Source: a virus. From it: a stretch of DNA of 64,000 bases. Numbering within the stretch: position 1 is the stretch's first letter; each line of letters starts with the position of its first letter. Shown here in pieces: positions 27,094-30,535 of this stretch. Both the position numbers and the translations under genes were made by a program. The DNA is taken from positions 16,113 to 80,112 of IMG/VR virus record IMGVR_UViG_3300033149_004458; one strand, 5' to 3'. Below the pieces are notes generated by a model. That model saw only the letters and a program-made list of their open reading frames with translations. It ran no database searches and was not told where the DNA came from.

Positions 27094-27303
27094 CTAATCG
27101 TGGGCATACCACAGCACTTCTCTAATACGCCAGAGCTCTTCTAACAGATCAAGCAAATCGGACGAATCATTTATAACTTTCCTGGCGATTTCTGTAGTAG
27201 ACATTCCAGCTTGATTGTTTAGGTAATCTCTCATTTTATCTAAGACCGACCGCATGTCACGTAGAATTCGCTCTTCACTATTCATAGTGTTGTTTCCTCT
27301 CAA
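27094..27303 (-). CDS. Hypothetical protein
   Basis: Co-oriented small ORF; probable start at MNSEE with a GAGG RBS. Confidence 0.45.
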   Translation of the reverse strand: MRGNNTMNSEERILRDMRSVLDKMRDYLNNQAGMSTTEIARKVINDSSDLLDLLEELWRIREVLWYAHD

Positions 27304-27866
27304 TAAGATGTTGCAGCTTCAGCTGCTTCAAGAAAGTTAACTGGCTTGAAATCCCAACAGTCTACCCCAACATCACATGAGTTTATTAGCTTCCTGAGCT
27401 TTCCGTGGCTATGCCCATAGAAGTGTAATGCTCCATAGTGAGATTTATCCCAAACGCGCATAGCATAATGACAGAGGACCACGGGTAATTTGGGAAGCAG
27501 TCCAGAAATAGAAACCATCCGTGGGAGTATCTCTATTTTCCCAGAGGTTGCCCAACCGGGGCTCAGCCGCTGAATCCATCTATAGTCGTGGCTCCCTGGG
27601 ACAACTTTTATATTCCCATTGAGCCTGCCCAAATATTGATTAACCCTCTCTAATAGAGAGAAATCCCCTAAATATAAAACTAGGTCGTTCTGTTTAACCA
27701 GAGCGTTCCAGTTAGAGATCAGTTTTTCATCCATTTCCTCTACTGAACTAAAGGGTCTGTTGCAGAATCTTATTATATTGGCATGTCCAAAGTGATGGTC
27801 TGCCGAAAGCCAGATGTTCTTATAATTAACACCTGTAAATTTTATGGTCCTCTTGTAATCCATCAA
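27300..27866 (-). CDS. Calcineurin-like metallophosphoesterase
   Basis: SADHHFGH, LGDF, PGSHD, LCHY, YGHSHG and DVGVD motifs. Confidence 0.88.
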   Translation of the reverse strand: MMDYKRTIKFTGVNYKNIWLSADHHFGHANIIRFCNRPFSSVEEMDEKLISNWNALVKQNDLVLYLGDFSLLERVNQYLGRLNGNIKVVPGSHDYRWIQRLSPGWATSGKIEILPRMVSISGLLPKLPVVLCHYAMRVWDKSHYGALHFYGHSHGKLRKLINSCDVGVDCWDFKPVNFLEAAEAATSY

Positions 27867-27971: not shown

Positions 27972-28196
27972 CTAACATAATTTATCTTGTTCCCTCGCTA
28001 TATTACTTTGCGCAAGCAAATTTAACATTTCGCGCAACTGCTGAATGAGAGTATAAACATCTCCAGCTTTTAAAGTAACAAACCTTTCAATTTTGCCGGT
28101 TTCTTCACCTATTATGAAACTAATAAATCCAAGTGCGTCGGTATCCACAGTAAGTTTGTTACCATATATTCCACTATATATTATTTTTGACATCAT
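27972..28196 (-). CDS. Hypothetical protein
   Basis: 74-aa ORF coupled to the stop of the ligase gene. Confidence 0.5.
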   Translation of the reverse strand: MMSKIIYSGIYGNKLTVDTDALGFISFIIGEETGKIERFVTLKAGDVYTLIQQLREMLNLLAQSNIAREQDKLC

Positions 28197-29095
28197 TATC
28201 TCCCATCAAAGATTTCCGGTAGAAGTCGCTTTACCTCCTCGATGGTACTAGAATAAAAGAAGCGAAAATTTATTGTTACGTTTCCATACGATTTCAAAAT
28301 ATTCCACATCTCTTCAGTGATAATCTCGTGCCAAACACGACCAAACAGCTCTGGGATTCGCTTACGTGAGAATGGGCCGGTTTCTCTCATTTTAGCTAAA
28401 ACCTTGTTTAGTCTTGCCTCTGTAACAAATTCCTGAGCTAGTTTGTGTTCAAGGGGGGACATTTGTGCCCGTGGCAGGCCAAAATTATTAATATGCTTCT
28501 CTCTAAACTCATTTCTCACAAGCTTCGCCCAGACTGTTCTACCATAGTTATTTTTAAAACCATATCTCTTTACAACAATTCCCTCTCCACTACCTTTGCC
28601 ATCCTCAATCAGAAAAGTATTAGAACTCAGCAACTTGACAAGATGTTCTTCTGTTGGGTTATCAACAATCTCTATTGGCGGAATAAAATCAACTCCGTAT
28701 TCTTGTAAGGCTTCTATGTATTCATAATATGGGAGATATTCTTCTCTAGCATCATCAAAGACATCAAAAACATAAAAATGTTTCCATGCATCTTCTCTAT
28801 ACGTTTTAAGAGTATGCGGAACCAACCATTCTCCATATAGTCTCCAAGAAGGCTTATCAGAGAATAACGCGAGAAGCCGTTTTTCCATTGGCGAAGATAA
28901 AACAAAGTCTAAAAATCCTGCGTTATCTTTCTCTAGTGTCAGCTCCCGTTTTCTACTTCCTGCATGTAGCTTCCCATTATACCAAACTGAGGCATTGGTG
29001 CCATCTATTTTAGGGAATATATAGCATGTTCCAACATTTATTCCTGCAACCTCATCAAGACCAAATCGCTCAATGTGCATATATGGCTTAAACAT
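28196..29095 (-). CDS. ATP-dependent RNA ligase (Rnl2-like)
   Basis: Nucleotidyltransferase motifs PKIDGTN, GSRKR, LYGEW, FYVFDV, GEGIVVK and WAKLV, plus an Rnl2-like C-domain (FVTEARLNKVLAK). Confidence 0.82.
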   Translation of the reverse strand: MFKPYMHIERFGLDEVAGINVGTCYIFPKIDGTNASVWYNGKLHAGSRKRELTLEKDNAGFLDFVLSSPMEKRLLALFSDKPSWRLYGEWLVPHTLKTYREDAWKHFYVFDVFDDAREEYLPYYEYIEALQEYGVDFIPPIEIVDNPTEEHLVKLLSSNTFLIEDGKGSGEGIVVKRYGFKNNYGRTVWAKLVRNEFREKHINNFGLPRAQMSPLEHKLAQEFVTEARLNKVLAKMRETGPFSRKRIPELFGRVWHEIITEEMWNILKSYGNVTINFRFFYSSTIEEVKRLLPEIFDGR

Positions 29096-29581: not shown

Positions 29582-29779
29582 TCATTTCAGTTCACGCTCC
29601 ACCTGTTCTGAGGATAGCTTTGGAAGAGTGTCGCACAATGTATCAGGAACACACGGTGTTGTCTTTAGCCCTCCCCGCTCGCTATGTTCAAGCCTATATG
29701 ATATCCAGCATCCTGTGGCAACCGCGATCAAGACAGCTCCTAGTATCAATATTCCTATCCAGGCAGAAATCATTTCCAT
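29582..29779 (-). CDS. Small membrane protein
   Basis: N-terminal hydrophobic helix, AAGGAG RBS and its own promoter. Confidence 0.5.
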   Translation of the reverse strand: MEMISAWIGILILGAVLIAVATGCWISYRLEHSERGGLKTTPCVPDTLCDTLPKLSSEQVERELK

Positions 29780-29873: not shown

Positions 29874-29945
29874 CGAGAGAGCCAGGGATCGAACCTAGAT
29901 CTCTGATTTTGGAGACCAGTATTTTGCCGATTAAACTACTCTCTC
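29874..29945 (-). tRNA. tRNA-Trp (CCA anticodon), 3' CCA not encoded
   Basis: GAGAGAG/CTCTCTC acceptor stem, D-arm GTTTAATCGGCAAAAT, anticodon arm CTGGT-CTCCAAA-ATCAG, T-arm CTAGG-TTCGATC-CCTGG, discriminator G. Confidence 0.92.
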
Positions 29946-29996: not shown

Positions 29997-30068
29997 TGGA
30001 GGTGTGAGGAATCGAACCTCAGTTTCCAAGACAACATATGTCATCTTAGAACGAACCCTTTCACCCCC
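29997..30068 (-). ncRNA. Miniature tmRNA-like RNA (tRNA-like domain only, no mRNA/tag domain)
   Basis: GGGGGTG-AAAGGGTTCGT-TCTAAGATGAC-ATAT-GTTGTCTTGGA-AAC-TGAGG-TTCGATT-CCTCA-CACCTCC-A. Shows a G3.U70 acceptor stem, A discriminator, stemless D-loop with GG and UCG, P2 closed as a hairpin, and a canonical T-arm. Confidence 0.75.
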
Positions 30069-30535
30069 GACTTAATTGTGTCTATTTAAAACTCTTCTTT
30101 CACTTCGCACAACTCTTTTACTTTTCCTGTTTAAATAGCTGCTTGAGATAAGCTACTCTCTCTTAGTTTGTCCAAACAACGATGTTCTTACGCTTTGATA
30201 CGCATCCAAATAATAAACGGCCCACTTAACGCCATGCTCCTTAGCGGCTCTCCAGTAATCAATGCACTCATCAAGATACCTTTTTACGGCCTCTTCGGTG
30301 AGCTCAATCTTCTTGGTCACTGGTTCCGTCCCCGCATCTTTTCTTCCTCTGATTCCTATATCTAGTCCTACCATCAGTGGCATCTCTTAAACCAGCCATA
30401 ACGCCACTTGACGACCACAAGTGGTGTCCATTTATATCCTTTCAGGTAAATGCGTTCGCGGATAAAGTAAGAACCATGCGCACTACACCATTTGCCGAAT
30501 GATAACCAAATCATTATTACCTCCCAACTCTTATA

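Follow-up and report, generated by a model that had tools for sequence, protein, structure and literature searches.

Trans-translation is the main pathway by which bacteria rescue ribosomes and tag the proteins released from them, and it is a drug target. In this pathway, tRNA-like domains (TLDs) receive their amino acid from AlaRS, associate with SmpB and EF-Tu, and are taken into non-stop ribosomes (PDB 4V8Q; PMC8012679). For phages, the literature names one case of a gene reduced to this domain, listed as 'Mycobacterium phage DS6A (TLD only)' by Hudson, Lau and Williams 2014 (PMC4131195) and recorded at JN698994: 28478-28557 (tmRNA Website tmID 11587). As relayed in PMC4131195 and PMC11915505, Mao et al. 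2009 found a DS6A-like molecule to be a strong inhibitor of tmRNA in E. coli, and the account in PMC4131195 adds that inhibition was reported whether the molecule was chargeable or not, perhaps via SmpB titration. The 2025 tmRNA database paper (PMC11915505) gives the same account of DS6A together with mitochondrial and plastid tmRNAs that have no coding sequence (CDS); in mitochondria and certain plastids these CDS-less forms have survived alongside SmpB, and their supposed role is to deal with incomplete mRNAs. The DS6A element lies between gp33 and gp34 and is unannotated in the GenBank record. Elsewhere in that genome, 21 kb from the TLD gene, gp76 (L060:301-1503) is an RtcB-like RNA ligase.

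The window, by which we mean the whole 64,000-nt stretch of DNA analysed, carries a candidate TLD-only mini-tmRNA gene of 72 nt on the minus strand at 29997..30068, with CCA not encoded. The gene and all its parts are read on that strand, from 30068 to 29997, so that RNA position i lies at 30069-i in the window. The 5' strand of the acceptor stem, GGGGGUG (30062..30068), contains G3 of the G3:U70 pair (tRNA numbering), and the 3' strand, CACCUCC, contains U70 and is followed by a discriminator A at 29997, RNA position 72 (29997..30004 for strand and discriminator together); RNA positions 1-7 and 65-71 pair as GC, GC, GU, GC, GC, UA and GC. The AlaRS identity set is thereby present, with G3:U70, G1:C72, G2:C71 and the A discriminator. 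The stemless D-loop, AAAGGGUUCG at RNA positions 8-17 (30052..30061), holds the tmRNA-type GGxUUCG motif (here GGGUUCG); formation of a D-stem is impossible in it, and G17 at its end can pair G.A with A46. In place of the mRNA-like domain and pseudoknots stands a P2-like hairpin (30024..30051), so that 28 nt separate the D-loop from the linker. Its core pairs positions 19-29 with 34-44 (11 bp), U18-A45 is the 12th pair of the helix that ends at C29-G34, G17.A46 is a possible 13th, and the tetraloop AUAU lies at 30036-30039. The linker A46-C47 (30022..30023), which together with A45 makes an AAC where the family consensus is G-A-C, leads into the T-arm UGAGG-UUCGAUU-CCUCA (30005..30021), which matches the 3' end of the tmRNA model RF00023. 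The discriminator is followed by CUG, hence the gene encodes no CCA. All Watson-Crick and G-U pairs of the three stems are intact (24/24), and the GC content of the element is 47%.

A pattern of shared motifs had one match in the window and none in 100 shuffles, and the fold z-score of the element was -4.6. In the minimum free energy fold by nearest-neighbour thermodynamics (-32.0 kcal/mol), the 3' half of the T-arm is taken up in pairing with the D-loop; folded as a TLD, the RNA has -29.0 kcal/mol and is 3 kcal/mol less stable. Because the two folds differ, the T-arm is supported by comparison with relatives and not by energy.

ARAGORN and Rfam at gathering scores called only the neighbouring tRNA-Trp and passed over the mini-tmRNA. 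At lax thresholds the best match of the element within the tRNA clan was tmRNA (RF00023), which scored 14.4 bits where the gathering score is 47, in an alignment limited to the 3' end (T-arm and acceptor strand) with posterior probability near 1. The tRNA model RF00005 gave no match to the element at its gathering score, and no other Rfam family of the tRNA and tmRNA clans reached its gathering score there. The hairpin loop has 4 nt. By these models the element is neither an ordinary tRNA nor a canonical tmRNA. A weak match to RF04321 (15.9 bits) raised the possibility of a permuted, two-piece tmRNA; this was rejected because the tRNA-Trp follows 51 nt on and the genome holds no coding piece. 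The first-pass annotation, made from the letters alone, had described the acceptor stem, D-loop, hairpin, T-arm, missing CCA and 51-nt spacing, and each of these details was borne out; its expectation that standard finders would miss the element also held, as did its view that this is not an ordinary or decayed tRNA. It had further anticipated local Rfam matches at both tmRNA ends: the one at the 3' end was found, and the 5' end was not matched.

Compared with bacterial tmRNA (SsrA; RF00023), the window element shares the consensus acceptor GGGGGUG/CACCUCC, the GGxUUCG D-loop, the T-arm and the A discriminator, but is without pseudoknots, resume codon, tag ORF and helix 5, and does not encode CCA. 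The closest likeness is to DS6A, which is likewise phage-encoded and combines an acceptor with G3:U70 and A73, a stemless D-loop, a P2-like helix and a T-arm with no mRNA-like domain. The DS6A element differs in being 80 nt long, in its P2, which contains an inner hairpin plus an internal AAAA loop, in its junction, which is the consensus GAC/G-AC, in its 70% GC, and in belonging to a temperate actinophage with an integrase, whereas the window element has 72 nt, a plain 12-bp hairpin with a tetraloop, a GU/AA junction and 47% GC, in an integrase-less 80-kb phage. The CDS-less mitochondrial tmRNAs of jakobids and oomycetes (RF02544) and the ~65-bp plastid forms of Mallomonadaceae (PMC11915505) likewise consist of little beyond the TLD and have no tag frame, but they are organellar and served by a dedicated imported SmpB. 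The YrlA Y RNAs of bacteria and phages (PMC4201824) are also non-decoding, have a tRNA-like T-arm, are substrates of tRNA enzymes and sometimes lie near RNA ligases. They differ in that their D-arm has a stem, that they carry a module for binding Ro60, and that they adjoin the Ro60 gene; the window element has no D-stem and no Ro60/TROVE gene, and its ends form a true 7-bp acceptor stem.

To place the element among relatives, covariance models were built from other sequences. A first pattern of shared motifs, derived from the window, returned 57 IMG/VR loci, mostly 63-89-nt elements of the same build. A model made from nine other IMG/VR sequences with the window left out (R1) matched the window element over its full length at 58.2 bits (E about 6e-11), as its sole match in 64 kb, and ordinary tRNAs reached at most 26 bits on the same model. 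Since the first pattern was derived from the window, the test was repeated with an independent, acceptor-agnostic pattern, which fixes only TTCGAC, GGAC and the T-loop, does not match the window, and returned at least 120 IMG/VR loci. Sixteen sequences from this pattern, unreachable by the first patterns, with acceptors starting GGGC/T/A and D-loops GGUUUCG, were used for a second model (R2), which again matched the window element over its full length as the sole match (50.3 bits, E about 1e-10) and did not match the tRNA-Trp. A third pattern, with the D-loop GGHTTCG, returned at least 120 loci. On mycobacteriophage DS6A, R1 and R2 gave exactly one strong match, 28478-28557, at 67.4 and 59.9 bits. 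Because both models match the window element and the DS6A element, the two belong to one family.

An alignment of 52 R1 matches (42 distinct) had 97.6% of its cells paired, with changes on both sides in 16/20 pairs and a covariation score of 0.625, against 0.124 for shuffled and at most 0.094 for slid alignments. Acceptor stems are 100% paired across the family, with compensatory changes at positions 5-7; in the P2 helix 5/5 pairs changed on both sides, and in the T-stem 4/5. Judged from this covariation, the family is a real structured RNA. The strict patterns alone give it a size of well over 150 IMG/VR loci. Two GGGG...TCCA patterns yielded 97 distinct elements among the matches listed, with lengths of 63-89 nt and a mode of 79; of these listed elements, 26/97 encode CCA and 8/97, about 8%, are called by ARAGORN. 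Another tRNA lies at most 300 nt away in 18 of the 97 elements among the matches listed and is absent from the other 79. The neighbour is a tRNA-Trp(CCA) in 3 of the 18 tRNA-adjacent members (window 29874-29945; L003:705-776; L004:6006-6077), too few to judge. From the ARAGORN rate it follows that phage annotation pipelines systematically miss the class.

The structural predictions of the first-pass annotation thus stood: the element is recognised by both models as a TLD without mRNA-like domain, tag ORF or pseudoknots, with a 28-nt insert in their place, homologs with covarying stems exist, and the alanine identity set that it had noted is kept by the family. Its interpretation was right in substance as well; of the four possible functions it had put forward, the nuclease decoy is not backed by the gene context. 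Its belief that this is not a described phage RNA class was wrong, given the DS6A 'TLD only' entry (PMC4131195, PMC11915505) and the match of both models to that element.

How strictly the alanine identity is kept could be judged without bias only in the acceptor-agnostic sample, in which the window is not included, because the first two search patterns fixed G3:U70. Among the matches listed, this sample comprised 34 distinct new elements, with G3:U70 in 33/34 and A73 in 34/34; G1:C72 was found in 34/34 and G2:C71 in 33/34 of the same listed elements. The next pair, 4:69, was GC in 14, CG in 14, UA in 3 and AU in 3 of these 34 elements among the matches listed. That the alanine identity set stays fixed while pair 4:69 drifts with compensation points to selection for AlaRS charging. 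A signal that serves only for RNase P/Z cleavage is thereby disfavoured, as is, less strongly, an SmpB sponge that acts only passively.

Within the family, the window copy departs from the rest at the junction beside P2. The junction of most members, UUCG-A-C[P2]...[P2]G-G-A-C, makes a tandem G.A/A.G beside the helix, and the window has UUCG-U-U...A-A-A-C. Its G.A pair is present, as in 91/97 members among the matches listed, and the A.G is replaced by a Watson-Crick U-A, which occurs in 2/97 of the listed members against A.G in 68/97; the 3' junction AAAC in place of GGAC is found in the window alone of the 97 elements among the matches listed. Stacking is preserved and sequence is not, and the altered junction could bind SmpB more weakly. 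The P2 of the window copy forms a simple 12-bp hairpin with no mismatches; in the common form it has an inner hairpin and an A-rich internal loop. Further members with plain hairpins were found at L132 (63 nt), L155 (64 nt) and L127 (65 nt), the first of which has an acceptor stem identical to that of the window and a near-identical D-loop. The window copy is a compact, minimal variant (72 nt, plain hairpin, altered junction) and introduces no new principle. At the other extreme, two 95-nt members (L242:11908-12002 and L249:11235-11329) show a greatly extended insertion separating the P2 strands; the size of the P2 cap varies widely.

The source genome is complete, at 80,112 bp with 114-bp direct terminal repeats, and encodes a tape-measure protein, terminase, portal, PolA, DnaB and RNR. 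Across the whole 80-kb genome ARAGORN called one tRNA and no tmRNA. The complete genome encodes no tyrosine or serine recombinase, and neither SmpB, a CCA-adding enzyme nor a Ro60/TROVE domain was found in it; the RNA must therefore use the SmpB, AlaRS, EF-Tu and CCA-adding enzyme of the host. The tRNA-Trp(CCA) gene (29874..29945, minus strand; RF00005 62.2 bits, CCA not encoded) lies exactly 51 nt downstream of the mini-tmRNA on the same strand, and the two are probably co-transcribed and co-processed. Together they occupy a 373-nt gap between an upstream 76-aa ORF (30153..30383, minus strand), which has no Pfam or PHROG match, and the next promoter. A weak promoter-like site is located at 30527-30499 (minus strand), and two strong promoters with near-perfect TTGACA-17-TATAAT/TAAAAT and a TG extension lie at 29840-29812 and 29514-29486 (minus strand). 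Both strong promoters precede small genes just 3' of the tRNA-Trp, one of which (29582-29779) encodes a 65-aa protein with a hydrophobic N-terminal part.

Further along the minus strand, 0.8 kb downstream of the tRNA-Trp, are genes for an Rnl-type RNA ligase of 299 aa (28196-29095; PF09414 6e-20, phrog_548 5e-46) and a calcineurin-like metallophosphoesterase of 188 aa (27300-27866; phrog_547 1e-40), which by these matches look like an RNA end-healing and sealing pair. The closest cultured homolog of this ligase/phosphoesterase locus is in Cellulophaga phage phi19:3, at 47% identity. When the 1530 ORFs lying up to 2.5 kb from the 97 elements among the matches listed were compared all against all by BLASTP, no protein family recurred beside the elements, and the largest cluster comprised 8 loci.

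Taken together, these results are best explained by a functional TLD-only (tag-less, CDS-less) tmRNA gene of the DS6A kind that inhibits or short-circuits host trans-translation, a reading to which we assign a probability of roughly 0.7. Its two parts differ in strength: the identity as a TLD-only tmRNA is very probable, and the mechanism of inhibition or short-circuiting is only somewhat favoured. The RNA would be transcribed with the tRNA-Trp at the end of the upstream operon, excised by host RNase P and a 3' nuclease, and completed with CCA by the host CCA-adding enzyme. Host AlaRS would then charge it with alanine through G3:U70, A73, G1:C72 and G2:C71, and host SmpB would bind the D-loop and the P2 junction. 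The resulting Ala-TLD.SmpB.EF-Tu.GTP complex would compete with host tmRNA for SmpB and non-stop ribosomes. Because there is no resume codon or tag frame, no more than a single alanine would be added to the nascent chain, which would stay free of a degradation tag, and the net result would be that host trans-translation is inhibited or short-circuited during infection. Since the inhibition cited is independent of chargeability, a simple 'SmpB sponge' would fail to explain the conserved alanine identity; the conserved charging signals favour action on the ribosome.

The same identity and the same early steps could also lead to a different outcome, rescue without tagging. In that case, the charged TLD and host SmpB would accept the stalled chain, and the peptidyl-TLD would be freed by drop-off together with Pth or an ArfB-type factor, giving fast ribosome recycling with products unmarked for proteolysis, which would help a phage that shreds host mRNA. 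Such an outcome accords with an alanine identity that is strictly kept while its neighbours covary, implying that charging matters where a pure SmpB sponge needs none, with the persistence of CDS-less tmRNAs alongside SmpB in organelles, where they are thought to aid incomplete mRNAs (PMC11915505), and with inhibition reported 'whether or not chargeable' in the account that PMC4131195 gives of Mao 2009. In these secondary accounts, however, the sole experiment cited on a similar molecule is one of tmRNA inhibition, and efficient release of peptidyl-TLD would be a supposition, so that we consider rescue without tagging possible but unlikely. Proposals in which the RNA is never charged fare worse. 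Cleavage of a t-element by RNase P and RNase Z might merely separate the upstream mRNA from the tRNA-Trp and the downstream genes, and such punctuation would fit an element that is flanked by an ORF and a tRNA and for which no separate promoter was called; yet cleavage needs only an acceptor and T-arm minihelix, and the family conserves G3:U70, A73, the GGxUUCG D-loop and the G.A junction, while 79/97 distinct members among the matches listed stand without a tRNA within 300 nt. A processing signal is improbable on these grounds.

A functionless remnant, either a decayed or aberrant tRNA-Ala or an attP-type scrap of host ssrA, would account for the departure of the window copy from the junction consensus, and its acceptor and T-arm do occur in some tRNA-Ala genes, one of which (L219) has the same 3' end. 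Against this, no tRNA model matches at its gathering score, tRNAs stay at or below 26 bits on R1 where the element scores 58, and 24/24 pairs are intact; with both gene ends present and no integrase in the complete genome, an attP scrap of host ssrA is unlikely, and decay of any kind is scarcely credible. The remaining proposals make the element a decoy for host nucleases that cleave tRNA or tmRNA, a part of an RNA-repair module, or a non-ribosomal alanine donor. The ligase and metallophosphoesterase 0.8-2.7 kb downstream on the same strand, and the RtcB-like ligase that DS6A also encodes, are what one would look for in a repair module, but none of 33 IMG/VR loci with ligase homologs had a TLD element within 5 kb, the 97 elements among the matches listed share no recurrent neighbour family, and the ligase of DS6A is 21 kb from its TLD. 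There is moreover no anticodon loop for anticodon nucleases and no Ro60/TROVE partner, and roles of this sort are very unlikely.

The window gene is a real, further member of a class that is already described (Mao 2009; Hudson 2014, PMC4131195; the 2025 tmRNA database, PMC11915505) but badly under-annotated. From the conserved charging signals we tentatively suggest that phage TLD-only RNAs may be charged effectors that enter the ribosome and are not passive SmpB sponges, with aminoacylation and EF-Tu delivery required for their action. If so, they would be a means, widespread among phages, of rewiring ribosome rescue, by adding one alanine and no tag or by a deliberate non-stop block, and the plain-hairpin form in the window would be its minimal working architecture. 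A small phage RNA that blocks or hijacks trans-translation would be a natural inhibitor of the pathway, and a tool for studying the steps past SmpB-dependent accommodation.

Among cultured phages, blastn of the element itself found only short T-arm matches. Five sites in cultured phages from this search scored at most 27.5 bits on R1 and are other tRNA-like elements or tRNAs. Microbacterium phage HerculesXL (OP068330; L094:1463-1525) carries an unannotated 63-nt tRNA-like mini that has a T-arm and an acceptor stem of the G3:U70 type, and Synechococcus phage S-CAM1 (L096:1487-1538) carries an unannotated 52-nt tRNA-like mini, whose acceptor is mismatched at positions 2 and 5; these two (25-27.5 bits on R1) may be more reduced relatives of the family. 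At L013:2266-2698 (minus strand), ARAGORN called a permuted tmRNA with the start of its tag peptide inside a 79-nt TLD-only element (2605-2683), which means either that the element set off a false call or that a genuine gene in two pieces exists here.

Relatives of the source phage were sought by blastn of 2 kb around the element, which had no match among GenBank phages, and by its terminase, which found none in IMG/VR and only 21-25% identity in GenBank phages. Pieces of the phage occur in two hydrothermal-vent DNA data sets, in small shares and on scattered low-depth contigs that give the element itself hardly any usable coverage; among the sequencing runs listed as containing the phage none was of RNA. 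To trace the host, 185,579 species genomes were searched for an identical tmRNA 3' end; of the three matches none was a tmRNA, two being tRNAs and one an odd tRNA-like element. The tRNA-Ala gene L219 has a 3' end identical to that of the window element. On a Saccharibacteria MAG contig (L221:432-527, minus strand) lies an element of ~96 nt that matches no Rfam family at gathering score and has the acceptor GGGGGUG/CACCUCC, a T-arm, a tRNA-Ala-like D-arm and a long insertion replacing the anticodon region.
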